Shown here: positions 9,301-59,052 of the stretch, one piece after another
Layout of the letters: each line of letters starts with the position of its first letter
Position numbering within the stretch: position 1 is the first letter of the stretch
IMG/VR virus record: IMGVR_UViG_3300037502_002629
Length of the DNA stretch: 64,000 bases
Strand: one strand, 5' to 3'
Source of the DNA: an uncultured virus (IMG/VR IMGVR_UViG_3300037502_002629)
Taxonomy: Duplodnaviria > Heunggongvirae > Uroviricota > Caudoviricetes
Position numbers and translations under genes: made by a program
The notes under the pieces: generated by a model
What the model was told of the DNA's origin: nothing
Seen by the model: the letters and a program-made list of their open reading frames with translations, nothing else
Databases searched by the model: none

Positions 9301-12300
9301 CTTTCTTTATTAGAACAGCAACTAAATTTGTTCGGAAGAGAACAACTACAAATATTTAGAGATAAATTGACTCAGTTGGGTATAACTGAACAAGATTATC
9401 CCATATCTGATTTGTACTTGAATGCATCGCGCAACATGGTTGCTGATATGTTTTTTAATAACTGGATTAATGGTATGCAGGTTAATCAACTTTTTGATGG
9501 TGCAATTGCTGTTGGTATTAAGAACTTTGCTGACTTCTTTAAAAGACAAAAAGCTGGTGCAGCTGCTGGTGAAAACATATATAATCCTTTCAGATCCAGT
9601 CTTGGTCGCACTAAAACATATCGTGCTGCAGTGATGCAGGAAATTATCTTTTATATAGACGATAATGATTTAACTAAGCCAGCCAAATTAACACCATATA
9701 ATGGACCAGGTGAAAAAAATAAAGCTGTTAAAATATTTGATGGACAGTCAGTTAATACAATAGAGCGGCGTATCAAAATTGCAGAATCTCAAGGACAAGT
9801 CGATTACGATGCCCTGGAAATTCTTAAGAAGATGCGTTATATGTTAGATAGTTCACCAGAATATTCTAAAGATATCATAGCACTGCGTAATCGAAATATT
9901 TATTTCAATAGCTTAAAAACAGTTGCTGCTGCTGGATTTCAATACATTAAACAATCTGAGCATACGCTTTTACGACGTGACGTAAGTGTAATAAGAACAG
10001 ATATTAATAAAAATGTTGCACAGCAAAGATTAAAAAATCTGTATGAAAATGCAGATATATATGCTGAATTTTTAGACTTGGGTATTACCACTATGCTGGA
10101 GGATCCAAAAACAGGGGAGATGCGTCCTGTTGAAGATCTGTACAAAGAGACTATGTCTGAAATACACAGCTACTTTGTTCCAATGAAGGGTAGGGAAGCA
10201 TTGCATGTTATTCTCAATAGCATGGAAATGGATCGTATTGAGCAGCTCATGGATCCTAATGCAAGCAAGAAAGCTACTGTTAAACCAGTTAGTGTAGACT
10301 ATCAGTCTATCGAAAGTGGTGAAGGCTATCTTGATCTACAGTCAGCATTAGAGAATGTACCCACTGACTTAACATATATTCAGGTTGAAACAGGTGGCAT
10401 TACTACTAAAGTAACACAGGGTATACAGCAGAAATTGCTGATTATGGCCCAGTTAAATCCCAATGATCCTCAGTATGCTGCAATTAAAAAGGATATTCAA
10501 GGATATAGAGATAATTTATCTGCGGCTGTTAAATCAGAAGTTACACGTATACAGCGTATGCTGGATACAAATAATACTGATGTAATAGGTAAAATCTATA
10601 CAGCAATTGCAGATGGTCTAAGAGAACAAGGTGCAGATCCAACTATACTGCAGTGGTTTGAGCTAAATCCAGATGGAACACCCAAGTATAGTCCCGCGAA
10701 TCCTCTAATAACTAATACCATAGTTTACTATTATTTTAGTCTTTTTAATAATGGTATATTCAATAAAAAGATAGCAGGTGACAAGTTTTACCACGTTAGT
10801 CCATATGGATATAAGATTTTGGAAACTAGTCGCGGTGACATTATCACACATCGTGAGTACAAAAAGAACCCAGATTTATATAAGAACGTTAATGCACGAT
10901 ATCCTAGTCTACGCAGGGAAGAGTACGATGAAACTGATCCAGTAACAGGGATAACTGAGAAAAAAGTAAGATACATTGCAGAAGCTATTATACCTGCAAA
11001 GCTCAAGGAGTTAGATCAAACTTTTGTAGAAAGATACCTATCAGAATTTTTTAGCACGCGTATTCCTACTGAGGATAAGCGATCTATGATTGTGGTAAAA
11101 GTGGTAGATTACATTGACGAGGCATATGGTAATAGTATAATTGTTCCTTTCCAGCTTCACATGCTTTCGGGGTCAGATTTTGATATTGACTCCTTATATG
11201 CACATATGAAGTCAAGTTACAAGGCTCCAGATGGTACTCGTGATGGTACTCGTGTTTTGTATGGTAATTATGCTCATTATAAGAGTAAGTACAAAATGAC
11301 GGAGAATGATGCTAAATTTATAGAGTATCTGATCTACATGTCTAAGGATGACATGGTTAAACCTTTTCTTAGTGAAGAAATACGTAAAATAGACGAGCAA
11401 TCAAGTTACAAAGCAGAACAAGCTAGAATATTTGGAGATACCTTTGGTGGACAAATAAAAGACTTTTTCTATGAAAATGCTGCGTTGTTAGAAAAAGAAG
11501 AAACAGAGGATAATGCAGAATTGATTGATGATTTTAAAAAACTGATTGCCACGTTTAATGTACTACAAATCTTCAAAGAGTCTAATCTTCCAACTTCACC
11601 AGCATCTTTACAGTCATACATTCGTACTACTGGAACAAATCCTGTTGTTAATGTTATTCTTAATGACATAGTTCAGAATAAAATAAACATATTGTCTAAC
11701 CCTAAAGTGTTTGATAGATTTTTACAAGCAACAAACAATAGGGCAGATGCAGCTACAGAAATATACGAGGATCTGGTGCGTAGAAGGGGGATGACTGAAA
11801 CTGAAATATACACAAAACAGAATCTTTATACTCCCACTGCTTTAATTGTTGCTCGTTCTATCAATGCAGAATCTAAAGATTCGTTGGGTATAGCTGCTAG
11901 TTTTAACAAAGGCGTGAGTATGCTCAATACTATAATGGCTACTTTAAAGAAGCCAGTAGGTACGGTGTACATAAACGATGGCAAGACTAAAATTAACACA
12001 GATAAGATTGTAGATGATGCTGTTCAGTTAGTAGGAGGTGCAATAGGACTTTTTGCTGATGCTCCTAAAAATCCATATCCAGGACCACTGCATTTAACAG
12101 ATACCACAACACCTGTAATGTTAGGTATGTTTTCATTAGGGTTTCCACATGCTGGGGCTATAATGTTTCAGTCTATACCTGTTATTAAACAAGTATTAGA
12201 TAGGTACATACAGCAGTATGGCAGTTCGTATCGCACAACAAGCGGTTTTGCAATAAGTAAAAAGAACTTTTTATCGGGCATTATTGCAGATGCTATAGAA

Positions 12301-15300
12301 CAGAATACAAAATATCTGGAAGAAAATGGAATACTAGATTATCATCCAACCACTGGAGAACCAATTATTAATAAAGACAGCTACAAATTAATATGGAATG
12401 GTGTCGACACAATAAAGCCTGATACAGAAGATCAGTTAGCTACTGGATTAATTCCTTTAGAGAATTTTGGTTTTAGTATTACAGATAAAAACGGGGCTTC
12501 TTTTCCTGGCGATGTGGAGAATCTCCTGATACTAAATGAGTTTTTAAACTATATGGAATATGCTAATTATGTTAGTTTTAGCATTACCAAACTTACAGAT
12601 ACTCTTAAGGCGTTGCGACCAGATCAAGATGTTTTTGATCGATTACTTAATACATTCAAAGAGCTAAAAGAAAATCCAAACGATAGCAAATATCTATCAG
12701 GAACCAGTATAGCCAATCTGTGGAAAGCCTATCCAGTACTTAATGCAGCATATGATGCCTTAAAGTATATGGATGCTATGTCTAAAAAAGTACTAATAGA
12801 ACGTACTAGTTTCATGAAAGGTCTTTCTGCATTGTTTGCTAATGTAAGAGGATTAGATGCAGATCTTATAAAAAAGAATCTAAAAGCATTTATTATGTTG
12901 CAGTTGCAAAACGAAATGATGCAGGCAGATCCTAAAGGAATATTACCACAACTCTACTTAGAACAACTTGATGCTGAGAAGTTTCTAGATGGCACTACGA
13001 TAAGTGACTATTACTATCTGCGCGGTAAATATCCAAATAATGCTTTTTTACAAGCCGTAAATGCTGTAACTGACAATAACGGCAAACGTGTTTTAGAACT
13101 AACTGCAAAAGGTAATAACGCTACTTTATTTACTGACTTTTTAGCATTATTAACTGATGACATAGATGTAAAAGCTCGAGCTTTCAGAATAGCATATCAT
13201 GGTATGATTAAGTCTGGGGCGCAGCGTGCTAAAGGAAGTTATTATCACTTAATACCTGCTGCTTTATCTAAACCTATGAGTGATGCTATGTTTGCATTAC
13301 AAGATCAGCTTGTCAGTTTAGATGAATATATGCTTGCCAATCATAAGCTAGTTAAAAATGAGGCTGGTTTTTATGAAATGACACCTCTTGCAAAACAAGA
13401 ATATGCAGATCGTCTGAATGAGATTCTTTCTAAAAAGTTTGGTAATAGAAAGATGGACGAGATAATTACAGACGCAGTTTCCAAAATAGTGGCATATAAC
13501 ATTATTAATTCAGCAGAAGGCGTTAAACGTAACACCACTAGTCTTTGGAGAGTCAATAAACAGCTTGGAAATGCAAATTTAGAGTCAGCCGCAATAGAGG
13601 AGCTGGTTAGTTTAATCAAGCAAGTAGCACCTGGTTATAGTGATAATATCATCACAGATCAAGGTAATAGAAAAGAGTTAGGTTTACCTGTTGCTTTTGA
13701 TAATGTGGGTTTAGATCAGGTTGATCTATTTGTTCCAACAGGGAATACCTTGGAGTTAAAGATACCTGGATTAGATAGGAGAAGTAAGGAAATACTTAAA
13801 ACAATGGGTATTTATTCCTGGGGTGATGACTATGCATTTCCACTTTATCGATATAATGTTTATGGTCAGATGATGGTTCTTAAAAAGATAGATAATAAAT
13901 CTTTAGGGGAAGCATTTGTAGAAACTCTGGCTGAAACAGCTTTCAGTGGTTCCAGTAATAAAATAAATCTAATCGGTAGATCAGCTGTATATGAAGTTGT
14001 ACAAAAACAAGGGACAGGAAAAATTAGTCCTCTTGCGTTTGACAATCGTCAAGGTGCAATTCTTAACAACATAGTTAAGGGTTTGCAACAAACCAGTTCA
14101 GTGCGTGCGGATGCAATACCCAACTGGTTAAACATTAATCGTTTACAAAATAAAGCTTATTATTTTTGGCCATTGGCTAATACACAAAAGGGGCCTGTAA
14201 TTACCAATAAAACATATAGTGCTATTGATAATTCCACTGTGACTATAGGTCAGGTAGATGGAAAGTATCAGTTTTATAATGGTAAGCTTTATATGACCAA
14301 TAAAGCTGGGGCAAGCGCTACTGCACAAACACCTGAGCAGACTGCATTATTTGCACAAGCATTGGGGGCACCTTCGTTAGAGGATTTGCAAAACAATCCT
14401 GTGTTTACTGATTTCTTTAAGGGAAGTGCGTATATCTATTTGTACAATCTTAACAATGGAGATATCAACTCACCCACAGCTCAGCCACCAGCAGCACCTA
14501 TAACACCTCAGACACCTGTATCAACTACCCAACCATCTACTCAATCTGCTAAAAGAAAAACATATTCAGGAAAAGTAACAAGTTTACAACCTAATCAAAT
14601 ATTTGTATTTGGTTCTAATGAAGGAAGTTCTAAAGGTGGTAAACCTACACATGGAGCTGGTAGTGCTAAATTAGCTAAAGATAAGTTTGGTGCAATACAA
14701 GGTCAAAGTAGAGGTATACAAGGGCAGTCTTATGCAATTGTTACTAAAAAGTTCTATGATGTAGAAAAGTCAAGTACGCCAGGAGAAATTATTAAAGAGA
14801 TTCAAGGTTTATATGATTATGCTAATAAAAATACTAATAAAGAATTTTTAGTATCTGATTATTCTGAAAGTAATCTTAATGGATATACTGGTCAAGAAAT
14901 GGCTGATATGTTTGTTAAAGCTGGACCTATACCATCTAATATAGTATTTAATGACAACTTTGATAAACTAATTACTACTCAACCATCTACTCAACCTACT
15001 GGAGTTAAAGGATTCCAAGGATACAAAGGTGGATTTGAAGATAAAGGTAAAGGAACTCCTCAAGGTGATGGTAAAGATAAAGCAATGAGACAAGTTGCTG
15101 ATGGAGCAATTGTAGAATTTAAAACTGATAAAGTTGACTCTTCCTCTTTTACTACATTAAACTATTTTGATGGAACTTATAGTTATGAAAAAGACAGATA
15201 TATAGGAGAAGCTTTTACTGGAGATAGTTTTATGGGATACCGTAATAAAGTTATTATGCTAGCAAGAAATGGTAAATTTGCGGGAATTTCTTTAAATGAT

Positions 15301-17767: not shown

Positions 17768-20700
17768 ATGGCGTGTAGTATCATAAGAGATCCCAGAGAT
17801 GGGGAAGTTGTTCAGATTCTTGCTCCAAATGGACAACCATCTATGTTATTTAGTAATGCTTATCAAGTTACAGGTAACTCTGAAAAAGCACTTAGAATCT
17901 GGGCTGCGGCTTATACTCCCAGGTTTAAAATGAAATATGGAGACTGGGAAAATGGTGAAACATTTTTAACATTAGATATGAACGGTGAACCCACCGTTGA
18001 TACTGTAATGTACACCAACAGGCAGATCAATGACATTCTCAAAACATATTTTGCAAACTGGACAAACTTTCAACCTGGTAATAGAGGATTTGTAAAAGAA
18101 TCAGAGGCGCGTAGGTTTTTAGCAGCACTGAAAAAGAAGTTTCCTGATATTAAAGCTGAATTACAATATAGCTCAGGTGAGCCTGGCTATGCTAAAGTAG
18201 TTTTTATACCTGATGAAAAACAAATACCTTTCACAACTAATCGTAAAGAAATACGTCAACAGAAAGAAGTGGTTAATCCACTTATGGATAAACTGATGAG
18301 TAAGTTTCCAGGTCTAACTTATGAATGGATAAAGCCTGGTGAATTAAATCAGAGTGATCACTATGAAAAAGTTGATGGTATTCGTGCTTTTGTTCGCAAT
18401 AACAAAATTTATTTAGTAGAAGGTCGCGTACTACCAGAGGATGGTATAGAAGAAGTAATGCACGTTTTTGTTGAAATGCTCAGACAATCTAGACCTACTT
18501 TATTTAAAGGTCTGTTAGATGCAGCATCCAAAGACCCCAAGTATCAAGCGACATTTATTGCTATTTACAATCATTATAGTGATAAGATTCGTAACAAAGA
18601 ACGTGCTGAGATAATTATTCAAAGTGAGTTTCTGGGAAAATCGCTGGCAGCTGCCATGAGAAATGAGTTAGAAACTAATCCAGATGGAAGACCTGCTACT
18701 ACATTTGGTAAGTTAATACAGCGGTTTTTAGATTGGCTGGCTAATCTCTTAGATATTGGTGCTATGTCAGGCAGAGAAACTCTCAATGAAATAGTAGCGT
18801 ATATTAACACCGAAGATGTAGCTATTCCATTACCAGAAGACAACTACACTTATTATAGTGCAGCACCTACATCAGACCCAGATAATCTTTACGATCCTGA
18901 TGACAGAGATGATGCAGAAGAGTATAATAAAAAGAAAAAAAGACCAACACAACGCGAAAAACTTATTGAGCGTGGTAAGTTAGAACTTGAAAAACTCAGG
19001 TTGGTTCGAGAGTTTGTAACTCGTAATGCATTAAGTACTGCTGGCGCTGAGGCAGAGGAAGCAAAAAGACTTAGCATAGTTGATTTGCTGATTGCCAATG
19101 TCCAACAAAAGATACAAGATCTTGAAGATGGTGCAGAGACAATAAGTGTAAGTAAGTATGGTGGTTCTGAAAAAACAGAGATTGCTCGTACTAAAACAGC
19201 TGACATAGGTGCATCATTTGGTGAATTCTATCATATGTTCTTAGAAGAGTTGCAGTTTGAATATATGAAATCCAATAGATCACCAAGTACTGTATTTAGT
19301 GATCCAAGCTGGTTTGATGAGTTTTATGAAAAACACAAAGATCTTATCAAGTTTGACAAGTTTGACAAACAAGTTGTTCGACAAATTGCAGGTCAGCTTG
19401 CTGCTAAATTAGATGCACTTACAAGTGAAGGAAAAATAATTTTACCTGAAATTGAGATTGCAGTAAAGGATCAATCTGGTAAAATAGTTATTGGTCGTCT
19501 TGATATTTTGACTGTTGATAAACGTGGTAAAACTAGTGTAATAGATTTAAAAACAAAGAAAGTAAATTATATCCCTGGTAAGCCTAATTACTATAATGAA
19601 AGGGTATTTACTATGGAACCTAGTTCACGACAGGATACTTTGTTCAAAGATGGTGTTGATCCTGTATTTGCTCAATTTCGTTTACGGAATCCACTTAAAA
19701 AATATCATATACAGCTTGCTATATATGGTGAAATGATAAGTGCGCTGGGTATTAATCCTAATGATATTCAAGATCGTAAAATATGGGCAGTGGCTTATAA
19801 TGTGCAGCAAATACCAAATACAGAAATTTATAATCTAGAAGGTTACGGAATTGGTGAGTTTAATAATGCTGATTGGAAATCGATTGATCCTAATGGAGTT
19901 ATAGACGCAGCTGCACAATCACGTTTTCGACCAGCAGAAGAAAGACAAGATACAGATACCACTGCGGAGGAAATTAAAAAGAATCCATTTGCTCAAGTAG
20001 ACAAAGATTCTTTAACTCAAATGGTAGAGCGTATTCTCAAATTAGCACAAAACACACTCTCAGCCTTAGAAAAAGAAAAAAATGCTATTAAAAACAATGA
20101 AAACATATCTGTAGAGGATGCTAATAAACTAGTTGGCGAGATTAACAAACGAGTCGCAAGTATACTCAGCATAAAAGAAAAAATAGAGCAGGAAGGATTA
20201 GACAATCCTACAGATGAGTCTATTAGATTAAGCAAGGCTGCTATCATTAAGATGGCAATTGATGTGTTTTCTTATGAAATTGAAAACATCAGCAACAAGG
20301 TAGATGAAGTAGATATACCATCGACATATTCTTTGAATAATGTTCAAAACCAGAATATGTTAAAAACACTACAAGAATACAACTCTACTTTGGAGAATAT
20401 TGCAAGTTACATCAGAGACTTCAAGAATACGATTACAAGTATGGAGAACCTTCCTAAAGATACAAAGGAAGCTATCCAGGAGTATTTTGATGAAATGCTG
20501 CGTAAGTCCAGTAATGCTAGTGCAGTATATGTAAATGTTGGTAAGAAAATTGTCAAAACTGTTATTCTTAACACAATAGGCCCTGCTAATCTTAACACAA
20601 CAGGTCCTGCTAAGTTTGAAAAAGTGTTTGGAGAAATGCGCGCCATGCTTGGTCCAAAACTAGCAGCTATTGAAAAAACCATTGCTGATATTGAGTCTAA

Positions 20701-23700
20701 TAGAGCTACTGCTTCATCTGTTACCAGCAACTTTTCAAATGTAATTAAGAATATTTTTAGACAAAGCAAGAAAACTAATCTCGAAGCTTTAAAAGAAGAA
20801 GCAGCTAAGATTAGAAAGATAATGCAGATTAATAAACTTGATGAAAATACGCTTGATGATTACCTTGAAGGTATTTTTGGCAATCAAGATTCAGTGTGGT
20901 ATATGGGATCTACCATATCAGGTAGTAATAGTATGATAGTTAACATGGATCAGCTTATTGGTCAAAATGCTAACTCCGAAGCTGTTATATCTGCTGTTTG
21001 GCAATACCTGCGTAATGTTACAGAGTCAGCTAGGATAGAGGCTGTCAACTGGATGCAAGAAACTGATGTAAATAAAGCCACAGACGAAATCATTAAAGCA
21101 CATGGTGGGGACTTGTATAAAGCAAATGAATCATTTACTGAAGTAGTCGATGTCAATACACAATATGACAAAGACGGTAATGTAACTGAAACCAAACAGT
21201 TTTTACAGGCATTAGATCCTGCAAATATTGAATTTTACAATACTTATAATAGGTATAAAGCCCAGCTAAAACTGCTTAAAAACTTAATCATCACTACATC
21301 GCAAGCCAAGAAAACTGCACCTGAAAGTGAACAAGATACCATACAAGCTGAGATTGATAGACTCCGCGATTTAGAAAATGCTTTGGGTCTAGAGTTTATC
21401 GAGTGGCAGATAGAAGAAACAAATACAGAATTTAAACCTGAAGTATTGCGTTTATTTAGAGCAAGTGGAACAGCCAATACTGAAATATCTGACCTATATA
21501 GACAAATACAAGCTATTGAAAACAGTGCTCATGGGGTCCAAAACTTAACAGAAGAACAACAAGAAGCTATTGATAGTCTAGAAGCTCAGATATCAAAAAT
21601 ACGCGAGCGACTTAAACAAGAAGATCCAGCACTACAGGAAAAGTTGGATAAGATGTTGGAATACTTTGAGTATGATTTGAACTATAGTCTATGGGTTAAG
21701 AAGAAAGCTGAAATTGAAGCAAGAGGAAATCCTTTGGAGCTAGAACGTTGGCATCGCAACAATAGTGTCATGGCTCCTACACAAGAGTGGCAGGAACAGA
21801 TTGAGCGTATTTACGAGCAAATAGCAGCTGTGCGGGAAGAAGATCCAGTGATGCAAGATCTTATTAAAAAACGCAACAGCATTAAAAACCGCAACAAGGT
21901 GAGGGGTAAGTTTAATCTTCTATATATGAGTGAACAAGATGTGGAAGAGTTTGTGAAGTTAGATGAGCAGATACGCGAGCGAGGAATGATGGCAGCTGAA
22001 ACTACTGACATGATTACCAAGCAATATCTCGCTGAGCGATTTAATCTTTTAGCCAGTATGCGCAAAGAAGTACTGAGTGATAGTTATACTAAGAAAAGAG
22101 ATGCACTAAAAAGCGCAGTTGAACTTTCCTATAAGACATACAAGCAATTATCAGAACAGCACGATAAGGAGGCAAGTCCTTCATTAGCATTGCGTCAACG
22201 TATGGTTGAGGCATATAACCAGTATCAACGTGACGAAAACATATTTGCTGAGTTTTTTAATAAATACAATTACACAAAGTATGAAGTAGGAAACGATGTT
22301 ATTGCTTTACGTAAAGATATAAACGAACAACCCAAGCGTTTTGTATATGTGTCTATGCCTGCTGATCCTAATGATATAGAGCAGATTCCTAATAATAAAT
22401 ACAAAATCAAACGTCTGAAACAAGAAGCTTATAATCCAGATTATCAGCAATCTTTTGTACCTCAACGAGAAGGCGCAGGTTTTTATCCTTATCCCAAGGC
22501 TATACGATTTAACAAAGACACTAGTGAGTTTGAAATCAATCCAAGAGCTAGTCAGCGATATGTTAGCAGTAAGTTTAAACAAATGCAGGCTGATCCTGTA
22601 AAACACAAATTTTATACTGAGTGGTTTATCAAAAACTTTGTTCTCAAACAAAAATCAGCCAGTGGCCGCCCTCTTGGATTTTTTGCACCTTACGTACAAC
22701 AACGCGGCTTAGAAAACATAATAAGCAAAGGAGTTGAAGGCGTAGGTAGAGAAATTAAAGAGAAGATGCAGGAACTTCAATATGCTAATAGCAAAATGGA
22801 AGAAGCCACTAACCAGTCTGGAGTTACAGGTAAACAAAAAATATACTTTCCTGAAAACCAGCGTGTCACTGCAGATCTTACTTCTACTGACATGATTGGC
22901 TCTATAGTGAATTGGAATACAGGATATTACTTAAATAAAAACTTAGCTGTATCAGCACTAGAAGTGGAAGGTATACTGGCATATCTGAATGATATCAGAG
23001 CACGTCTATCTGCTGATTCCAGAGATTTAACAGGTACTAGAGACGCTGACCGAGTTGCTGCAGCTCGAAAAATAGACGTCATCATTAAAGAGATCGAGTA
23101 TAGTCATATGAAGTTCAATTATGGACAAATGTATGAGAAAGGCGCATCTCAACATCCATTGCTTAACAGAAAGACATTGCGTGTTATTATGCAGTTGGCA
23201 GCTTTTGGGCGTATGGCTTTTGATATACCAATGCAGTTTGGTAACTTACTCTCTGGTAATGTGCAAGCATTTTTATCTACACAAGAAGCAAGATTTGCTA
23301 CACCACAGGATTACATAGAAGCAAAGAAAGTTTTATACAGTAAGTTTTTTCCAAAGTTACTTGCAGACTATGGTAAACAAAGCGGTTTATCATTAGAAAC
23401 TTTGATTTATTACTACATGAATCCCTCACTTAAAGACCTGAGCAATTTTGCAGATATGAATACTGTAAAAAAAATGCGCAGGTTAGCAAATAAAGTGTGG
23501 GCTTTTCAAGATATCAGTATGGCTCTGCAGGATAAAGGCGAGGTTGAAATAGGCATGACAACTATGCTTATGATAATGATCAACAGAAAATTCGAGCAGT
23601 TTGAAATTAATCCTGATGGTAGTGTTGTAATAGAAAATGGTGTTAAGAAAGTAAAGCGCGATAGCGAAGGTAATGTAGTCTATGTCAATGCTACTGAAGT

Positions 23701-24592
23701 ATTTAAGCAAGTTAATGGAGCTATTCAGTTACGCAATGATGTAAACGTTACTGAACAGGAAATGCAACATTTGAAAGGTACTATTATGACTGAAATCTAT
23801 CGGTTTCAGGGAAACTATGCTAAAGCTACAAAGTCAAGCTTTAGCGGTACAATGATAGGTACTCTTTATAACTTTTATAGAAATTATCTCATACCAGCAG
23901 TATCTAACCGCTTTAGCATGGGCGGCTACGAAGGTGTAGGTAGCGCATATAGTTGGGATGCACCAGAAGCATACACTGGATACTATGTAGCTTTAATGAA
24001 GATGTTCAAGTATTATGGTTTAGGTAAAGCTGGAAAGGCGTTGTTATATGATACGTTCCTACCAGGCTTCGCTAAAAAACAGATTAAGTTTGACTCAGAT
24101 GAGGGGATGGACTATTATCGATATCGTGCAGTTATGGCCTCCAGAGAAGTATTAGTAGGTCTTTTATTTTACATGCTATATCAAGCCCTTCGTAATATGA
24201 TTATGGACGATGATTCTGAAGAACTAACTTTTGTTGAACTATCCTTGGCAAGGTCGTTGGTAAAAGTATCAAATGAGTCACGTTCTATGATTCCTTTGCC
24301 AATCATTGGTAAACCAGGCGATTATATTGATAATTTTGCTCAGCTAACCAGTGCACTTAAAGAAGGTAAAACTCTATGGAATCTCTCAGAAGATGCATTC
24401 TGGTCAATAATGTATACTACAACTGGATCAGAACATGCGTATGAGCGCGCGTTTTACCAGCGTGATACTGATAGATGGCAAGAAGGCGATCCTAGATTAT
24501 ATAAAAGTGTAGCGGATTTGTTGGCGTGGTCTAATATAGTAGATGCAGTACAGCCGCGTGAAGCAGCTGAAAGAGCAGTAAAAATGAAATAA
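17768..24592 (+). CDS. Giant putative cargo protein with degenerate zincin-like motif and PD-(D/E)XK nuclease domain
   Basis: N-terminal LAPNGQPSML...LDMNGEP motif. EEVMH at 18449-18463 sits in a zincin-like context. PEIEI...GRLDIL...IDLKTK...YHIQLAIY (~19440-19730) matches the RecB/PD-(D/E)XK layout. Long coiled-coil middle region. Confidence 0.75.
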   Translation: MACSIIRDPRDGEVVQILAPNGQPSMLFSNAYQVTGNSEKALRIWAAAYTPRFKMKYGDWENGETFLTLDMNGEPTVDTVMYTNRQINDILKTYFANWTNFQPGNRGFVKESEARRFLAALKKKFPDIKAELQYSSGEPGYAKVVFIPDEKQIPFTTNRKEIRQQKEVVNPLMDKLMSKFPGLTYEWIKPGELNQSDHYEKVDGIRAFVRNNKIYLVEGRVLPEDGIEEVMHVFVEMLRQSRPTLFKGLLDAASKDPKYQATFIAIYNHYSDKIRNKERAEIIIQSEFLGKSLAAAMRNELETNPDGRPATTFGKLIQRFLDWLANLLDIGAMSGRETLNEIVAYINTEDVAIPLPEDNYTYYSAAPTSDPDNLYDPDDRDDAEEYNKKKKRPTQREKLIERGKLELEKLRLVREFVTRNALSTAGAEAEEAKRLSIVDLLIANVQQKIQDLEDGAETISVSKYGGSEKTEIARTKTADIGASFGEFYHMFLEELQFEYMKSNRSPSTVFSDPSWFDEFYEKHKDLIKFDKFDKQVVRQIAGQLAAKLDALTSEGKIILPEIEIAVKDQSGKIVIGRLDILTVDKRGKTSVIDLKTKKVNYIPGKPNYYNERVFTMEPSSRQDTLFKDGVDPVFAQFRLRNPLKKYHIQLAIYGEMISALGINPNDIQDRKIWAVAYNVQQIPNTEIYNLEGYGIGEFNNADWKSIDPNGVIDAAAQSRFRPAEERQDTDTTAEEIKKNPFAQVDKDSLTQMVERILKLAQNTLSALEKEKNAIKNNENISVEDANKLVGEINKRVASILSIKEKIEQEGLDNPTDESIRLSKAAIIKMAIDVFSYEIENISNKVDEVDIPSTYSLNNVQNQNMLKTLQEYNSTLENIASYIRDFKNTITSMENLPKDTKEAIQEYFDEMLRKSSNASAVYVNVGKKIVKTVILNTIGPANLNTTGPAKFEKVFGEMRAMLGPKLAAIEKTIADIESNRATASSVTSNFSNVIKNIFRQSKKTNLEALKEEAAKIRKIMQINKLDENTLDDYLEGIFGNQDSVWYMGSTISGSNSMIVNMDQLIGQNANSEAVISAVWQYLRNVTESARIEAVNWMQETDVNKATDEIIKAHGGDLYKANESFTEVVDVNTQYDKDGNVTETKQFLQALDPANIEFYNTYNRYKAQLKLLKNLIITTSQAKKTAPESEQDTIQAEIDRLRDLENALGLEFIEWQIEETNTEFKPEVLRLFRASGTANTEISDLYRQIQAIENSAHGVQNLTEEQQEAIDSLEAQISKIRERLKQEDPALQEKLDKMLEYFEYDLNYSLWVKKKAEIEARGNPLELERWHRNNSVMAPTQEWQEQIERIYEQIAAVREEDPVMQDLIKKRNSIKNRNKVRGKFNLLYMSEQDVEEFVKLDEQIRERGMMAAETTDMITKQYLAERFNLLASMRKEVLSDSYTKKRDALKSAVELSYKTYKQLSEQHDKEASPSLALRQRMVEAYNQYQRDENIFAEFFNKYNYTKYEVGNDVIALRKDINEQPKRFVYVSMPADPNDIEQIPNNKYKIKRLKQEAYNPDYQQSFVPQREGAGFYPYPKAIRFNKDTSEFEINPRASQRYVSSKFKQMQADPVKHKFYTEWFIKNFVLKQKSASGRPLGFFAPYVQQRGLENIISKGVEGVGREIKEKMQELQYANSKMEEATNQSGVTGKQKIYFPENQRVTADLTSTDMIGSIVNWNTGYYLNKNLAVSALEVEGILAYLNDIRARLSADSRDLTGTRDADRVAAARKIDVIIKEIEYSHMKFNYGQMYEKGASQHPLLNRKTLRVIMQLAAFGRMAFDIPMQFGNLLSGNVQAFLSTQEARFATPQDYIEAKKVLYSKFFPKLLADYGKQSGLSLETLIYYYMNPSLKDLSNFADMNTVKKMRRLANKVWAFQDISMALQDKGEVEIGMTTMLMIMINRKFEQFEINPDGSVVIENGVKKVKRDSEGNVVYVNATEVFKQVNGAIQLRNDVNVTEQEMQHLKGTIMTEIYRFQGNYAKATKSSFSGTMIGTLYNFYRNYLIPAVSNRFSMGGYEGVGSAYSWDAPEAYTGYYVALMKMFKYYGLGKAGKALLYDTFLPGFAKKQIKFDSDEGMDYYRYRAVMASREVLVGLLFYMLYQALRNMIMDDDSEELTFVELSLARSLVKVSNESRSMIPLPIIGKPGDYIDNFAQLTSALKEGKTLWNLSEDAFWSIMYTTTGSEHAYERAFYQRDTDRWQEGDPRLYKSVADLLAWSNIVDAVQPREAAERAVKMK

Positions 24593-29167: not shown

Positions 29168-29353
29168 ATGGGAAAGCTAGGAAGAATGTCAAATCCTAAT
29201 GCAAAGGTATCTGCTCAGAAAGTACCTGGTAGCAAAGGTGTAGGATCCACTAAAAGTCAAAAAATATCTGGTGCTCAAAAGAAACCAAGTGGTAGAGTAG
29301 GAGGAGGTAATGCAAAAGCAACTGTATCTCCTAAAAAAATGAAAGGTTGCTGA
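29168..29353 (+). CDS. Small basic protein
   Basis: ORF track. Lys/Gly/Ser-rich. Confidence 0.7.
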   Translation: MGKLGRMSNPNAKVSAQKVPGSKGVGSTKSQKISGAQKKPSGRVGGGNAKATVSPKKMKGC

Positions 29354-52117: not shown

Positions 52118-52303
52118 TTATTTTTTAAATGGTTTATCTAATTCTTTCCTATATTCATCTATATCAGTGAAAACAGGAGGAACTTTCCCGCACATAGCAC
52201 ACCCCATCTCTCCATGAGAGACAGGGTATACTACTGGTGAATACTGTTCGTTTTTGCAATAAATGCATTTAGTTTGCATTATTACTTTTGCCGTTTCAGT
52301 CAT
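52118..52303 (-). CDS. Small zinc-ribbon protein
   Basis: CIYC...CAMC. Confidence 0.6.
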   Translation of the reverse strand: MTETAKVIMQTKCIYCKNEQYSPVVYPVSHGEMGCAMCGKVPPVFTDIDEYRKELDKPFKK

Positions 52304-52797
52304 TAGTTCGCCGCAATAATTGATTTTACTTTACTACGTTCTGATACACCAGAGGCATCATCAAATAGGGGCAGTATAACTTTCATTAATGCACCTACAG
52401 TATCAAAGCCATCTTTAATCAAACTCGCAGCAAGCAGGGTGTGACGTACTGATATTACATTACTCAGTTCCTGCTCTTTGAATTGATTACGAATTGTAGA
52501 AGATACTTTAACAATCGCCTTAGCTGTTTTAGTGTCAATACCAGTGCGAATTGTTAAGATGTTTTCTTCTGCTTGCTCAGAGGGATAGCTCAATTCCACA
52601 GGGAAGAAACGATCTAACAAAGCGCGGTCAATCTGAGTAGTACCACTATACTCCGCACCTAAGTTAGCAGTGGCAAAGAATACACATTTCTCATTGACGG
52701 GGATACTACGCAGTGCATCACCGCCTGCAATGTCTACAGGAAGATATCTACGTTTGTCAAGACATGGGAACAATATGTTTGCGGCTGAAATCGGGGC
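52303..52797 (-). CDS. MoxR/CobS-like AAA+ ATPase, exon 2
   Basis: APISAANILF...FATAN.G.EYSGT..IDRALLDRF. It joins in frame to exon 1 as DELNR|APIS. Confidence 0.88.
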   Translation of the reverse strand, partial: APISAANILFPCLDKRRYLPVDIAGGDALRSIPVNEKCVFFATANLGAEYSGTTQIDRALLDRFFPVELSYPSEQAEENILTIRTGIDTKTAKAIVKVSSTIRNQFKEQELSNVISVRHTLLAASLIKDGFDTVGALMKVILPLFDDASGVSERSKVKSIIAAN

Positions 52798-52853
52798 CAA
52801 ATATGTTATCATAGAAGCTCTTTATCTTCTATTTCTGTATATTACTATACAGT

Positions 52854-53777
52854 TCAGACTATATCATCATCATGATTATTAATCATGAGCAGGGCACTCG
52901 TGTTAGCATTACTGTCCTCAACATTACTTGGTAGGACTCGGCTATTAGTCGTTGAACCTTCAAGAGCATTACTGCTCAAGCTTGGCTGCTGATTGTCCTC
53001 TGAGCCATCAGTAGGAGTTTCCAGCAATTCACCCTGTTTTACAATCGCTATCCCCTTCTTAAATCTGTATTTACCTTTAACTTTCTTACCTATACCTCTA
53101 CAAACACTTGAAATACATGCACACAAACTATCAAAATTATCTCCTTCTTCATAAATGCTTCTAGCTGCAGTAGCTATATTTTTAAATTCTGAAATATTAC
53201 CTTCAGAATCAATCATAGTTACTCCAACCCATTTCCACTTAGATCTTTGTAAATCATAAGTGACTTCAGCATTTTTGTTGTAGCTCCACAAATAACCACC
53301 CGCAGATTTAAGTTTACCATTACAAACTTGTATAATGGAACTTGCTGCTATGTGAGTCTGTCGTTGAGCTTCTTTTGTAGAAGGATAATTACTTACTAGT
53401 TTACCATCAAGTCCAAACTGGTATACAGTTTTACTGTTAGGTATAGAATTATTTTGTGTTACAGGATCCAGTTTATTATTCAATACTGGCCCTAACAACT
53501 CAATCCAATTTTTTTCTAGTTCAAGTAATTTTTCTCTTGATATGTCTTTTTCAAGATGCAGTACAGAATAATGACACTTTTCTGAACCGTGTTTGTTGAA
53601 TGTGTGCTGCATCCTAGAATTTTCATGACTATTCTTTATCAATTTGTTTTTATGTTCCCTAAGTCTGTTTTGAATATTTACAGAACTTCCTACATAATTT
53701 AATTCATTGATTTTGAGATAGTAGATTCCAGGATACTTACTTATTACATCAAGTGATGTTTGAAATAGAGGTGTCAT
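52854..53777 (-). CDS. Intron-encoded GIY-YIG homing endonuclease with NUMOD1-like repeats
   Basis: GIYYL...YVGSS...RLREH; VYQFGLDGKLV..YPS..EA...I...C.GK.KSAGGYLW. Confidence 0.9.
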   Translation of the reverse strand: MTPLFQTSLDVISKYPGIYYLKINELNYVGSSVNIQNRLREHKNKLIKNSHENSRMQHTFNKHGSEKCHYSVLHLEKDISREKLLELEKNWIELLGPVLNNKLDPVTQNNSIPNSKTVYQFGLDGKLVSNYPSTKEAQRQTHIAASSIIQVCNGKLKSAGGYLWSYNKNAEVTYDLQRSKWKWVGVTMIDSEGNISEFKNIATAARSIYEEGDNFDSLCACISSVCRGIGKKVKGKYRFKKGIAIVKQGELLETPTDGSEDNQQPSLSSNALEGSTTNSRVLPSNVEDSNANTSALLMINNHDDDIV

Positions 53778-53804
53778 TGTAATTAGTATTAGATGATTTT
53801 AATA

Positions 53805-53836
53805 CAAATATACAATTATTTGTTAAGATAAACAAA
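53805..53836 (-). promoter_or_regulatory. Bacteroidetes-type promoter inside the intron, upstream of the endonuclease ORF
   Basis: Minus strand TTTG-N20-TATATTTG, 27 nt before ATG 53777. Confidence 0.7.
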
Positions 53837-53857
53837 TACTTAAGATTTTATTTATTA

Positions 53858-54625
53858 ACGATTCAACTCGTCAAGAAGTACGATACCATCTTGTTGCACA
53901 TGGCCTACAAATGGAGCATAATCGAACTCTGAATGACCGTCTTTATTCAACCTGTGCACACCTAACAATGCAGATTGAGCATCTTGCACAGTACCCATAT
54001 CCTGTATACTCAAGGGTTTTTCCATGGCACGCGCAATGTGTGATACCAGCTCTGTCTTGCCTGAGCCTGTAGGTCCTACCAACAACGTATTTTCACCACG
54101 CATGATGTTACGTATTAACAAATACCATACATCTGCATCAATGTGAAAACCTGTGCTTTGCTCATCTGGACAAGGGTACAATCGCATAATACGATCTCTT
54201 AGTGTACCTGTTTCATCTTCGGCATAAGCTTTACATTTAGCTTCCACATCTAACAAGTAACCCATCTCGACCCACTTAGCTGCATATTCGAGGGCTTTTT
54301 CGCGCTTAATCTCATTAGACATAAGCATCCACTCAAACGTGTAGTTAACATCTTCGTGTGTGCAGGATATTTCACCTACAGTATTCCCATATACAGTTTC
54401 TTCGTAAATGACAGGACGCGGTGCCCCTATAATCTTAGAAACTACTTCACCCCAAAGGATTTCACTAACAATAAACACTGTCCCTATCGGGAATTTTGTC
54501 AATATTTTAGAGTCACCTGTAAACGTGGTGCTGGATAAATCAATTGCCTTTGGTTTATTAGGCTGGTTGTCAACAAATTCAATGTTAAATTGTGTACCTC
54601 TGAGGGCGGTTTTAATTAAATACAT
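53858..54625 (-). CDS. MoxR/CobS-like AAA+ ATPase, exon 1 (spliced product 420 aa)
   Basis: GPTGSGKT and LLDELNR. The TAA that follows is the first three nucleotides of the intron. Confidence 0.88.
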
Positions 54626-56249: not shown

Positions 56250-56639
56250 TTAATACTCTCTTTTAGGTATAAATTTTTCCATTCCAATGATGTACTCTTC
56301 AGCTATCCAAGAAGTGGATGTGGTGTAATACTTTTCTCCCATCTTAAATGCTCTATGCGTTTCTTCTACATCATTGTAGTTTGTCTTTACCATGTACTGA
56401 TTGTCGGGGTTGAACCTTGCATGAAATACTTGAGTGTCTTCTTTCTTAGCCAAGCTTTCTTCATACTGCCAATCCTTTTGTAGCCATTCAAAGAGGTGTA
56501 TCCTTTCACCTTCTGTCATTTGACTCCAATATTTGTCTGTTAAGTTTTGCCAAAACATTGTCCGTGCAATTGGTCTTGGCGGTATACAAGCCTCTGCTAA
56601 GAAGGCTAATTCAAAGAAATCTATTGTGAATGTAGTCAT
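56250..56639 (-). CDS. Hypothetical protein
   Basis: The likely start is MTTFTIDFFEL at 56639. The longer ORF-track call overlaps the cassette gene. Confidence 0.65.
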   Translation of the reverse strand: MTTFTIDFFELAFLAEACIPPRPIARTMFWQNLTDKYWSQMTEGERIHLFEWLQKDWQYEESLAKKEDTQVFHARFNPDNQYMVKTNYNDVEETHRAFKMGEKYYTTSTSWIAEEYIIGMEKFIPKREY

Positions 56640-56727
56640 ACTATGGTTGTGTTTTGTTTCATCTATCCCATCCCCTCCTGCTGGATTGGCGAAATAATAT
56701 ATCGGTAATAATAAGTTAGCGGTAATA

Positions 56728-57102
56728 TTACTTACCGTACACAAACCAAATCGGCTTAACTGAACAAAACATTCCCCAATCTTGACTGCCAACACCACTT
56801 CTTTCAGTTGACAACTCAAATGCAACTTTTGTGCTTCCATCTGTATCGGGTTCATTTGCTGTTGGTTTTTTATTGGCTTGATACCATCCCCAAGCGAAAT
56901 CAATAGTTTGTTGTAAATTGTATTCGTAAGGGAATTTTTCGCACTTGTCCGAATACCTTGAAAGAAATAATTCGTTTTCAATTATTTTATATCCGTTGCA
57001 TCTAAATTCCTTATTGAAAGGAACTTCATCCAATGCAATAAGTTTTAAGCCTAATTCAAAGGCTTCTTTTGTGGTGTTTCTAACTAATACTTCTACATTC
57101 AT
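56728..57102 (-). CDS. Hypothetical protein (cassette 1)
   Basis: ORF track. Contains EPDTDGS and is bounded by GTTAGCGGTAGTA and TATTACCGCTAAC. Confidence 0.75.
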   Translation of the reverse strand: MNVEVLVRNTTKEAFELGLKLIALDEVPFNKEFRCNGYKIIENELFLSRYSDKCEKFPYEYNLQQTIDFAWGWYQANKKPTANEPDTDGSTKVAFELSTERSGVGSQDWGMFCSVKPIWFVYGK

Positions 57103-57151
57103 TTTATTATCGTTTTTAATTGAAAATCACTCGTAAACTAAACCGTACTAC

Positions 57152-57282
57152 CGCTAACAAGGGTTTGTAGCAATAGGGGCAGAAGTGCTTTAATTAAGCT
57201 GTGTACTTCTAATCAGCTTTAGTAGGTAATTGAACAGTAGTGCATCTAATCCCCTACTGCTACAAGCCCCGAAACGTTAGCT
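57152..57282. repeat. attC-like site A
   Basis: CGCTAAC...GTTAGCT ends. Inner arms GGGTTTGTAGCAATAGGGG / CCCCTACTGCTACAAGCCC are 17/19 complementary. Confidence 0.82.
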
Positions 57283-57903
57283 GCAACCGTAAGAAAGCAC
57301 CTCGATAGCCTTGTTCGCTTGTTCGATAGTTAATCCTTCCATTGAATCACAGCAGATAAAATATTTTGATTGTTCGTAAAGCATATCGGAATCATCATCT
57401 AAAATCACATAGGTAAAATCAGTTCCCAGCTTATTTGAACGCATCATTTTAAAACTACCATCTTCATTTAAAATTTGGTATCGCTCATTTTGTTCAGGGT
57501 AAGCATACCAAGGGTAAATTACGTGTGTATCTAACCATTGTTTAATTTCAACACCCCTCGGAATTGATAAATGAACACCTTTTTGTAAATATTGATAAGC
57601 TCTAATTGTTATACCTATAATTTCATCACAAAATTTAAAGCCGTGTTCTTTCATGTGTTCAATAGTATCTTCAATAGTATGTTTTCTCCAACTGCTACTA
57701 AGAACTATTTTTGCACCTGTTTTTTCTATTATCATTCCAAGTAATTCTTGTTTTTCGGGTGTTAAAGCCCACATTCCATGCTCAACTGTTTTTGGTGTAG
57801 CAATTACCCCATCAATATCGAGAAAAATAAAACGGCAGCAGCTAACCGCACCTATACGCAAAATGGGGTTGTCGTTCTCGTTGGATAAATTTTCAGTATT
57901 CAT
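57277..57903 (-). CDS. HAD-family protein (Swiss-army-knife RNA-repair-like HAD), cassette 2
   Basis: FLDIDGV, IVLSSSWR, RGVEIKQWL and YVILDDDSDM. The stop TAA lies in the GCTAAC box of site A. Confidence 0.8.
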   Translation of the reverse strand: MNTENLSNENDNPILRIGAVSCCRFIFLDIDGVIATPKTVEHGMWALTPEKQELLGMIIEKTGAKIVLSSSWRKHTIEDTIEHMKEHGFKFCDEIIGITIRAYQYLQKGVHLSIPRGVEIKQWLDTHVIYPWYAYPEQNERYQILNEDGSFKMMRSNKLGTDFTYVILDDDSDMLYEQSKYFICCDSMEGLTIEQANKAIEVLSYGCS

Positions 57904-57972
57904 AAGTTTCGTTTTTGTTGTTAATTTTGTGGGTACAATCCCCATTCAGCGCATAGCTGCAACTCGTTAGTG
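57840..57972. repeat. attC-like site B
   Basis: AGCTAAC...GTTAGTG ends. Arms GCACCTATACGCAAAATGGGGTTGT / ACAATCCCCATTCAGCGCATAGCTGC. Confidence 0.8.
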
Positions 57973-57979
57973 GCAAGTG

Positions 57980-58297
57980 CTACTGACCGTTCCATAACAA
58001 ACGATGTTCGTCTAACTTGTCATAATATTGTTTCATATTTTCATCGCCTACAATTTGTTTTAATTCCTGCTTCCAAAAGTCTTTTTCTAAATTGTGAAGT
58101 TCATTAGCTCTTATAAGCCTTGCAGTTTCGTTAGGGTTCTCAAGTTTATTATAGTTCAGTGTTGCAAGCCTTAATCTGAATCCACTTATAATTGCTCTTA
58201 CTTTAGGAATTAAAACATCTTTCCTAAAATATGGCTCATCGTTTATAGCTTGTACTAATATTTCTGATAATTCTTTTGTACTCGTTTCTTTTGACAT
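57980..58297 (-). CDS. Hypothetical protein (cassette 3)
   Basis: ORF track. Lies between sites B and C. Confidence 0.75.
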   Translation of the reverse strand: MSKETSTKELSEILVQAINDEPYFRKDVLIPKVRAIISGFRLRLATLNYNKLENPNETARLIRANELHNLEKDFWKQELKQIVGDENMKQYYDKLDEHRLLWNGQ

Positions 58298-58321
58298 TTT
58301 CGTTTAATTTACCGCACCAGC

Positions 58322-58424
58322 CGCTAACAGCGGTTTGGTGCTATTATTTTGCCTATAAATTTTATCTAAGGCTTGAAGTATCTGCAAGGCAAAATAACAG
58401 ACACCAAGCCACCAAACGTTATGT
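58322..58424. repeat. attC-like site C
   Basis: CGCTAAC...GTTATGT ends. Arms GCGGTTTGGTGCTATTATTTTGCCT / AGGCAAAATAACAGACACCAAGCCAC have one extrahelical base. Confidence 0.82.
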
Positions 58425-58730
58425 GCAAGGCTGCGGGACGTTTTCAATATAAGTTTCCAGTTTTATAAACCTATACCCTTTTTGAAAGCTAAACATTGTA
58501 TGTCCGCAAGTTTTATGATGCAATCCAAATAACATAGTATCAAATGTTTTATTTGTGAGTGAAGTTATAAATGTTTCAACTGAAAAAGGAAATGTTATTT
58601 TCTTTTTTGCTATACCTAAAACACTTCCGCAACATCCGCAATAAAACTTGCTGCCTTTTAGAATATCGTTACCATCTGATTTCTCAACAATGATTGTATC
58701 TCTCATTTTATCAATTAGAACTTTTTCCAT
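58419..58730 (-). CDS. Cys-rich hypothetical protein (cassette 4)
   Basis: YCGCCG...HKTCGH. The stop TAA lies in the ACATAAC box of site C. Confidence 0.7.
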   Translation of the reverse strand: MEKVLIDKMRDTIIVEKSDGNDILKGSKFYCGCCGSVLGIAKKKITFPFSVETFITSLTNKTFDTMLFGLHHKTCGHTMFSFQKGYRFIKLETYIENVPQPCT

Positions 58731-58759
58731 TGCGTTTACAAATTAAATTTAGTGCTGAA

Positions 58760-58785
58760 CACATCACCCCACCGTGAAGTAGACT
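58760..58785. repeat. 26-bp exact direct repeat, copy 1 (copy 2 at 61077-61102)
   Basis: CACATCACCCCACCGTGAAGTAGACT at both positions. Confidence 0.9.
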
Positions 58786-59052
58786 CCATCTCGGCTTGTT
58801 TGCTTGGTTACGTTGCGATTCATAAACTTGAAGGTCTCGACAATCCACTGCATTATGGTCCGGTGCATCGTCTTCTGATGCTCTTGGAATGCTGTCCTGA
58901 TCTGATCGACAATATCAGTGAGCTTGTATTCGACTCCGATGATGATGAATTCCTTGATCCACAGCATGACTTCTTCCGGGACTGTGTTGATGAGCTTCTT
59001 GTAGCGGAGGGTGTTTGTTGTTTCATATTGGGAAGCGGAGAGTTATAGGTAA

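Follow-up and report, generated by a model that had tools for sequence, protein, structure and literature searches.

A phage HAD phosphatase gene probably starts inside its own attC-like hairpin in an inverted integron-type cassette array

Introduction

Integron cassettes are usually described as a promoterless open reading frame (ORF) followed by its attC recombination site, and they are expressed from the integron platform. The canonical attC site shows a characteristic pattern of extrahelical bases. Here we analysed a stretch of 64,000 nucleotides from an uncultured virus of the Caudoviricetes (IMG/VR record IMGVR_UViG_3300037502_002629), which is called the window as a whole. On its minus strand, a gene for a HAD-type phosphatase lies in an array bounded by three attC-like hairpins. 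An initial annotation had proposed that this gene takes its start codon and leader from the hairpin of a neighbouring cassette.

A cluster of attC sites lacking an integrase (CALIN) has been listed for Polaribacter phage P12002L (Qi et al. 2023, PMC9892861). In class 1 integrons, site-encoded translation signals and N-terminal fusions are reported (PMC8876359), and gene shuffling mediated by promoter-early stem-loops (PeSLs) is documented (PMC2839356, PMC4122927). Term searches of Qi et al. and of Nilsson et al. 2020 gave no mention of Flavobacterium phage arrays. An inverted attC with a start codon inside it was not found in print by full-text literature searches or in the texts of Nilsson et al. 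2020 and of Qi et al., the Supplementary File 1 of which was outside the scope. The explanation that we consider probable as a whole is that the window carries a phage integron-type array of inverted cassettes, in which the HAD gene starts in its own attC.

Results

The HAD reading frame opens into the loop of hairpin B

The 64 kb were scanned with a pattern consisting of xTAAC, a 4-nt bulge, two complementary arms and GTTA. Exactly three sites were found, all on the minus strand within 1.3 kb. Sites C, B and A scored 20.4, 18.4 and 15.9, are 97, 127 and 125 nt long, respectively, and have (C/A)TAAC...GTTAG ends. Twelve context-preserving shuffles gave 0–4 hits each, with a top score of 15.4. 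When the coding strands were folded as DNA, z was −2.9 (C), −3.1 (B) and −3.0 (A); that of hairpin B reached −20.5 kcal/mol, and 1 of 200 shuffles was equally good. As expected of attC, the sites are imperfect inverted repeats in the range of about 60–150 nt with RYYYAAC and GTTRRRY, the outer consensus positions fitting in part. A search of Rfam over 56500–58900 gave no attC match, and its sole hit was a chance snoRNA (E = 0.11).

The stop-to-stop frame of the HAD gene extends on the minus strand from 57945 to 57277, with the stop codon at 57279–57277. From 57846 it reads GTT AGC TGC TGC, continues CGT TTT ATT TTT CTC and reaches GAT ATT GAT GGG, which gives V-S-C-C-R-F-I-F-L-D-I-D-G; the GTTAGC of this frame is at 57846–57841. 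The absence of ATG between GTT and FLDIDG, noticed in the initial annotation, was confirmed on the minus strand, and from GTT (57846–57844) to the DxD motif there is no GTG or TTG either, the sole ATT being six codons past GTT. The GTT is indeed an in-frame valine codon, Val20 of the ORF. The in-frame ATGs are at 57945 and 57903, 33 and 19 codons before GTT, and a TTG lies 5 codons ahead of GTT within the 3′ arm of hairpin B. Both ATGs are inside this hairpin, as had been noted. That at 57903 is in the middle of a 62-nt loop, from which the frame reads on through the 26-nt 3′ arm.

From viral and metagenome contigs, we collected nine distinct contexts in which the HAD gene is of the cassette type; the hairpins ahead of the ORF are of three types. 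The B-type hairpin precedes the ORF in the window and in loci L003, L004 and L020 (hairpin identity 0.88–0.93); the start of the ORF is 0.92–0.93 identical among the B-type pairs compared, close to the hairpin identity of 0.91–0.93 obtained within types in the same comparison. The L007-type hairpin is found in L007, L021, L023 and L024 (0.92–0.94), and the L008-type in one context (L008). The in-frame loop ATG is kept in all nine contexts with no stop before GTT, at a distance of 19, 17 or 14 codons across the three types (leaders of 60, 51 and 42 nt). The ATG at 57945 is not conserved, since its equivalent in L003 is followed by an in-frame stop, so that the ATG at 57903 is the candidate start. 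On this comparative sequence evidence, translation would start at 57903.

It is very unlikely that the leader is untranslated, with the start at the ATT after GTT or at the 3′-arm TTG, or with no protein made. An in-frame codon of the ATT kind is present six codons past GTT, and the leader is not part of the fold in an AlphaFold2 model (see below), as this explanation would have it. However, the codon varies (ATA in L003, ATC in L007 and L008) and leaves only two residues before the nucleophile Asp, compared with six in 75 of 116 homologs. The TTG is present only in the B-type hairpin and is absent from the L007 and L008 types. In addition, the leaders of all three lengths are in frame and stop-free over the nine contexts, and the HAD body is well conserved in an alignment of homologs (alignment A2).

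The 116 database homologs counted are those with the motif. Seventy-five of them begin with Met and four residues before FLDxDG, that is, seven residues before the nucleophile Asp. In 14 of the homologs, the form is SCC and the leader has 17–30 residues. In the cassette-type gene, the usual position of the family Met falls on the Cys codons of a terminal repeat (described below), by which the ancestral start was apparently overwritten. The sequence just before the ATG at 57903, aaaaacgaaactt, is similar to that found ahead of the other two cassette genes in the window. An A-rich AAACGA-type context thus precedes the starts of all three cassettes, which is supportive in the window and not general. 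As a general start signal, the AAACGA-type motif was rejected, being found at only 6 of 31 cassette starts versus 3.3% of background windows. Contigs of sequencing run X14 are labelled RNA-Seq; they are probably DNA and have no bearing on expression.

Borders of the cassettes

The window is phage DNA (35.8% G+C), and its three-cassette array, bounded by hairpins C, B and A, ends at 56715 (Table 1). Across the HAD gene, GTTAGCTGC (57846–57838) pairs at 9 of 9 positions with GCAGCTAAC (57284–57276). This is one case of a rule: the octamer that follows GTTA of one site is complementary to the octamer ahead of TAAC in the next site, at 7 or more positions in 13 of 28 adjacent pairs and at 6 or more in 20 of 28. 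In the controls, none of 40 pairs from within a site and none of 1430 unrelated pairs matched at 7 or more positions. Such complementarity across a gene is the pattern expected if the unit of gene and hairpin closes into a circle, as integron cassettes do. In integron cassettes, complementarity between the initial bases and the cassette's own inverse core is the signature of a circular intermediate, and this feature is present here.

Table 1. Features of the cassette array in the window (all on the minus strand)
Feature	Position	Strand	Remarks
Hairpin C (attC-like)	58325..58421	−	5′ element of cassette 57967–58418; its TAAC (58421–58418) holds the stop of upstream gene X
ORF Y	57980..58297	−	105 aa, no family match; gene of cassette 57967–58418; ATG 31 nt after the G of the hairpin C GTTA
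Hairpin B (attC-like)	57843..57969	−	Own site of the HAD cassette; TAAC core 57966–57969; GAGT bulge 57962–57965; 5′ arm 57935–57961; loop 57873–57934; 3′ arm 57847–57872; GTTA 57843–57846
Upstream in-frame ATG, probably unused	57943..57945	−	In the 5′ arm of hairpin B; L003 equivalent followed by in-frame TAA
ATG, inferred HAD translation start	57901..57903	−	Mid-loop of hairpin B; aaaaacgaaactt directly before
HAD_SAK_2 ORF	57277..57903	−	208 aa + stop; residues 1–19 hairpin-encoded; Val20 = GTT; nucleophile Asp29; stop TAA inside the next TAAC
GTTAGCTGC	57838..57846	−	Complement of inverse core and flank, in frame as V-S-C
GCAGCTAAC	57276..57284	−	3′ end of the HAD cassette (C-S-stop), then first base of the next cassette; homology among contexts stops here
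Hairpin A (attC-like)	57155..57279	−	5′ element of cassette 56716–57276
orf124	56728..57102	−	124 aa, no family match; gene of the third cassette
ATTACCGCTAAC	56715..56726	−	Array end after orf124; complementary at 11/12 positions to GTTAGCGGTAGT just after hairpin A

Beyond ATTACCGCTAAC the backbone continues without a hairpin. This end is the attI-side junction, and the intI-proximal junction of a Flavobacterium locus (L032, described below) has the same topology. Contigs from other metagenomes break at the same borders. Contig X3 matches the backbone at 56610–56718 and then diverges; contig X2 matches hairpin A up to 57281, is unlike the window beyond and also contains pieces of orf124 at 100% identity; contig X7 matches 57965–58332 and is unlike the window before 57965. 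Joints with short sides (23–28 nt) were not used. As a separate observation, sequences like hairpins A (57112–57303) and C (58264–58455) have a summed contig depth in the thousands in two wastewater data sets (runs X7 and X14), which greatly exceeds that of the genes on either side; attC sites of these types may be in repeated use across many contexts.

The hairpin travels with the HAD ORF

The flank rule is symmetric, and for this reason the gene contexts were compared. Within the B-type and L007-type groups, the upstream sequence differs from the base before TAAC onward, and the upstream flank of the HAD hairpins complements the start of whichever cassette precedes. The downstream sequences of seven of the nine contexts, six of them B- or L007-type, all differ right after GCAGCTAAC. 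Thus, since hairpin and ORF are kept in eight contexts while both flanks change, the hairpin travels with the gene downstream of it. Two Flavobacterium phages show the same unit: hattifnatt and mumin share a block of 100% identity from the TAAC of one hairpin through a methyltransferase gene to the next TAAC, and the last cassettes of their arrays abut the same backbone after xxxxTAAC, without a hairpin.

This result bears on the reading from which the analysis departed, in which hairpin B is the attC of the upstream cassette (gene Y), crossover occurs at GTT and the start is borrowed from the neighbour with routine N-terminal fusions. It has some points in its favour. Three hairpins whose mutual similarity does not exceed that of unrelated family members are joined to one ORF body exactly at G(T/A)TAGC, about eight leader versions occur among SCC-type proteins and loci, and the class 1 integrons cited above provide a precedent. 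However, the hairpin downstream of the HAD gene is common to none of seven contexts, whereas upstream hairpins are common within two groups of four; orf124 has no downstream hairpin and yet has the terminal repeat and abuts the backbone; and the polarity of integrase-linked arrays puts R′ at the other end of the hairpin. As the usual mode, a borrowed start is contradicted by these observations and quite improbable, and the canonical assignment of hairpin B to gene Y was dropped after the context comparison. Expression of the HAD gene would not depend on the site of a neighbour, as the initial annotation had supposed, because the hairpin moves with the ORF. What stands of its translation-initiation module is that, judging from the sequence, hairpin B holds the only conserved start and about 19 leader codons; it is the module of its own gene.

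The leader is not invariant. The B-, L007- and L008-type hairpins are 0.61–0.68 identical to one another, which is the background of unrelated members (0.60, standard deviation 0.04; 95th percentile 0.67), whereas the first 240 nt of the ORF are 0.84–0.93 identical across the three types, and the break is exactly at G(T/A)TAGC. About eight arm-encoded versions are found (NPILRIGAV, NPVLRIGAV, TPPCFIHGV, NPALHIASV, QPPLVIAGV, KPQCFIHGV, AAACFLPHV and NPTLPIHGD), some of which share length and scattered residues. The check proposed with the initial annotation thus gave the predicted outcome: homologs differ in the N-terminus ahead of 'VS', and these N-termini correspond to hairpin arms. Hairpin and leader have probably been exchanged at the junction at least twice, each time bringing in an in-frame ATG, and such events would be rare; alternatively, the hairpins diverge in bursts by compensatory change. 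Ordinary cassette shuffling leaves the leader unchanged, because the crossover is at TAAC and the hairpin is the gene's own. N-terminal fusion by shuffling, proposed as a general consequence, is accordingly limited to the probable rare exchange between hairpins of such low identity in front of an ORF that is 84–93% identical.

Polarity from integrase-linked arrays of Flavobacterium

A pattern search with site C gave five bacterial contigs, four of which are labelled Flavobacterium or Flavobacteriaceae. In one of them, Flavobacterium fragile HXWNR69 (L032), a gene for a 367-aa IntI-like tyrosine recombinase, which passes the cut-off of model NF040815 (223 bits vs 220), adjoins the junction ATTACCGCCAAC. 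The array next to it consists of a lnu(H)-like first cassette and eight family hairpins, and in each of the eight the TAAC-bulge strand is the one that does not encode the recombinase. Those ORFs that match a known family (lnu(H)-like, DUF7660, HNH and CoiA_N) are mostly on the top strand, in the canonical order of ORF and then attC. The same relative orientation was found in two more loci with an IntI-like gene (L033 and L034), so the hairpin type adjoins such genes in three Flavobacterium loci.

One hairpin of L032 is about 93% identical to window site C over 97 nt (by our own count in alignment A3). It precedes an inverted DUF3850 ORF, and its 5′ leader and 3′ end (TAGcacttgccacTAAC) are the same as in the window cassette of ORF Y. 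ORF Y was considered as a homolog of this DUF3850 ORF and is not homologous to it. A near-identical hairpin beside an IntI-like gene points to the window hairpins being attC sites of a Flavobacterium integron class.

By the polarity of the L032 array, the TAAC that adjoins the bulge, at 57966–57969 in hairpin B, is the crossover core (R′), and the phage ORFs are on the bottom strand with each attC 5′ of its own ORF. The attC is upstream of the gene because the cassette is inverted. The crossover had initially been placed at GTT; the array ends and the L032 polarity place it at TAAC instead. From this polarity and the better folding of the coding strand, the GTTAGC in the frame corresponds to the inverse core (R″), read as its complement.

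Two side observations concern the region 5335–14070 of L032. The lnu(H)-like lincosamide nucleotidyltransferase of the first cassette has an E-value of 9e-134, with a score below the cut-off of its model. A group II intron reverse transcriptase/maturase gene (5335–6630) lies just beyond the last hairpin.

The hairpin family in phages of Flavobacteriia

In 20 records of Flavobacterium phages there is an intergenic site with about 76% identity to site C. Eight hairpins of the family lie on the strand of the leftward gene cluster in the complete phage hattifnatt9-1, three are found in mumin6-1, and related viral contigs have 2–6. For 43 distinct sites of the window and related loci, the pairing score of a site's own arms was 14.6 on average, compared with 4.2 for swapped arms (99th percentile 11.1; 0.6% reach 12). 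The structure is thus kept while the sequence varies, as in attC, unrelated sites being about 0.60 identical. An ungapped covariation count was weak (0.58 in paired positions vs 0.43 in controls) and was superseded by this comparison, in which gaps were allowed. Of 34 sites, 29 fold better on the coding strand (p = 6.6e-6). All array ORFs of the window and the annotated phages are on the TAAC-bulge (bottom) strand; the order of an ORF upstream of its attC on the top strand is not that of the phages.

The HAD gene is not alone in opening into a hairpin. Among 31 surveyed entries, there are five other cassettes with such an ORF. In phage mumin, GenBank places the start of the DNA methyltransferase gp006 at the loop ATG; the N6_N4_Mtase domain extends from residue 37, and the next possible start would cut into it. 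A PAPS_reduct-like ORF in L003 also opens into the loop, and a downstream Met at residue 54 is a further possible start there.

In phage P12002L (L026), methyltransferase and Mom-like genes have hairpins of this type on their 5′ side. Its site P12002L_attC1, for which a HattCI call is reported (PMC9892861), maps to the coding strand 5′ of the methyltransferase gene. As a side observation, P12002L_attC2, which was recombined by IntI1 according to PMC9892861, occurs twice, at 29175–29201 and 37201–37227 of L026, and both copies are at the downstream end of a hairpin array, like an attI-side landing site.

Not every break is at TAAC. At about 4600–4750 of mumin6-1 (L002), only the 5′ arm is left of a hairpin that is complete in hattifnatt, and the identity ends in the loop. 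This half hairpin indicates that not all rearrangements use the TAAC core.

It also fits an explanation in which the hairpins are RNA-level or regulatory stem-loops, such as terminators or PeSL-like elements of the 5′ untranslated region, and shuffling occurs by homologous recombination between hairpin ends. The mRNA-sense strand folds better, a recombinase was not found in four virus records, the phage encodes a PD-(D/E)XK nuclease and an AAA_24 protein, and the PeSL-mediated shuffling cited above is a documented case. We regard this explanation as unlikely. The complementarity of cassette ends across a gene fits a circle with one hairpin and is not predicted by homologous exchange, the same hairpins are found in arrays beside IntI-like genes in Flavobacterium genomes, and breaks are found exactly at TAAC.

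The HAD protein

The protein matches the Pfam family HAD_SAK_2 (PF18143) with 77.6 bits (cut-off 27.5; E = 1.6e-21), the match beginning with profile position 2 on residue 40 of the 222-aa frame, and it matches phrog_1818 of the PHROGs database. In alignment A2, D29, D31 and G32 of motif I (DxDG) are invariant, and S69–S71, K152 and D169–D171 are invariant or nearly so; by our reading of the sequence, the latter may represent HAD motifs II–IV (Ser/Thr, Lys and an acidic pair). The AlphaFold2 model built from A2 has a mean predicted local distance difference test (pLDDT) score of 81, with strands alternating with helices in a Rossmann-like manner. Residues 1–20 have a pLDDT below 50, and β1 is at residues 23–28. 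The model thus suggests that the hairpin-encoded leader of about 20 residues is outside the fold and disordered. A profile search of the PDB with A2 gave no solved relative by sequence, and the DNA pattern of the cassette-type HAD gene had no match when bacterial carriers were sought in 185,579 species genomes.

Two other HAD genes were observed. A homolog without a hairpin (L006 2749–3618; protein P0020) is fused in frame to an upstream membrane-protein-like ORF, with a product of 279–289 aa. The HAD genes are also mosaic at A2 columns 143–160: L004 resembles the window in its B-type hairpin and N-terminal half, but its central segment is the shorter one found in the L007 and L008 types, which points to recombination inside the HAD ORF as well.

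Other genes of the window

Outside the array, the window encodes a PolB-type DNA polymerase (phrog_1252, E = 8.5e-141; weak match to Pfam DNA_pol_B), DnaB-like and superfamily 2 helicases, a PD-(D/E)XK nuclease, an AAA_24 protein, a uracil-DNA glycosylase and a GIY-YIG homing endonuclease. The stretch 58740–59050, which adjoins gene X on the upstream side where the array has its distal end, is richer in G+C than its surroundings and has overlapping ORFs on both strands (98 aa on plus; 79 and 67 aa on minus). A MoxR/CbbQ-like AAA+ gene (52303–54625, minus strand) appears to be split, the first AAA_5 half being in ORF 53855–54625 and CbbQ_C in ORF 52303–52812. Between the halves is a GIY-YIG/NUMOD1 homing-endonuclease gene (52854–53777), which may be an intron or a free-standing endonuclease insertion. 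Two ORFs are giant: 3382–17766 (4794 aa, with superfamily 1 helicase domains only at the C-terminus) and 17768–24592 (2274 aa, no family match).

Discussion

The arrangement that we propose is as follows. The phage carries a cassette array without an integrase, in which each cassette consists of an imperfect attC-like hairpin and then one ORF that ends at the TAA of the next TAAC. The phage ORFs are on the attC bottom strand (5′-TAAC, 4-nt bulge, arm), which places each attC ahead of its own gene. The HAD cassette (57277–57966) is filled entirely by its ORF, so that the terminal repeat GTTAGCTGC/GCAGCTAAC is read as V-S-C and C-S-stop and covers the position of the usual family Met, seven residues before the nucleophile Asp. 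Initiation would then take place at the ATG at 57903 in the A-rich, unpaired 62-nt loop, and translation would continue across the 3′ arm and the GTTAGC that complements the inverse core. The outcome would be a disordered leader of about 20 residues on an otherwise ordinary HAD phosphatase fold. It is plausible that the cassettes recombine as single-stranded hairpins through an IntI-like enzyme of the host, and the hairpin may also have a regulatory effect on translation.

Several observations weigh against this explanation. No tyrosine recombinase was found among the 56 window ORFs scanned, nearly all of them of at least 90 aa, and PF00589 recombinases were found in 0 of 4 array-bearing virus records. 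The recombinase of L032 scores below the cut-off of TIGR02249 (204.9 vs 265 bits), with two matching stretches that skip model positions 179–238. When the canonical extrahelical-base pattern was compared by way of the aadA7 bottom strand printed in the supplement of PMC9892861, the window hairpins had neither the extrahelical bases nor the unpaired central spacer; they have a 4-nt bulge after TAAC and 1x1 mismatches. P12002L_attC1 gave no recombinants with IntI1, the sole failure among the six phage sites tested according to section 3.4 of PMC9892861. Some curated sites at other loci score only 12–13, inside the range of the shuffles. The break at G(T/A)TAGC between hairpin types means that the link between hairpin and ORF is not absolute. 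Finally, the starts of database homologs were chosen by gene callers and are not independent evidence.

A wider proposal is more tentative, and we put it forward as a possibility less likely to be right than wrong: the arrays in Flavobacterium chromosomes and virulent phages may form a distinct integron class. Its marks would be the inverse orientation with the bottom strand as the mRNA sense, an attC loop co-opted as 5′ leader and initiation region (holding the N-terminus in about one-fifth of cassettes), the 4-nt bulge, and a Xer-like 'IntI' of the host without the insert that is usual in integron integrases.

If the explanation of the HAD cassette is right, there is a phage-borne, reversed form of the cassette in which attC precedes the gene and can hold the start and the first 20 or so codons. 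One sequence would then be constrained at once as a recombination hairpin, an initiation region and a coding sequence. The near-identical attC ties phage 'CALINs' to a Flavobacterium array and suggests that cassettes pass directly between the integrons of hosts and virulent phages. The cargo in known phages includes DNA methyltransferases, which are relevant to the evasion of restriction. For annotation, ORF starts should be sought inside the upstream hairpin, and gene direction is no guide to the polarity of attC.

With the phage proteins of HAD_SAK_2 (PF18143) and phrog_1818, the window protein shares the DxDG nucleophile, the SSSWR and DDD motifs, the Pfam score and the predicted fold. It differs from these relatives in the extra hairpin leader of about 20 residues and in its SCC and GCS ends.

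With integron cassettes and the phage CALINs described by Qi et al. (PMC9892861), the array has in common single-gene units between imperfect hairpins with YTAAC...GTTAG ends, variable sequence with a kept structure, complementary unit ends and stop codons inside the core. It differs in that attC is 5′ of a bottom-strand ORF, in the 4-nt bulge at the core and in the absence of an integrase in cis.

The closest described cases of translation from a site are ORF-11, ORF-17 and ORF-18 of attI1, the short ORFs of attC and the aac(6′)-Ib fusions, in which, as reported in PMC8876359, the site supplies the start and ribosome loading and frames cross the core. These cases are mostly coupling from the neighbouring attI or the previous attC, or rare fusions, whereas the start in the window would be in the gene's own attC loop and the leader permanent. 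Coupling of the ORF-11 type, with a leader ORF ending near the core, was not found: the leader frame runs stop-free into the HAD domain.

The PeSL cassettes of T4-type phages resemble the array in their hyperplastic regions of small genes, each after a conserved stem-loop that travels with the gene (PMC2839356, PMC4122927). In these reports, however, PeSLs are motifs in which an early promoter is combined with a terminator, and homologous recombination shuffles them, whereas the sites of the window are variable in sequence, have complementary cassette ends and have integrase-linked relatives.

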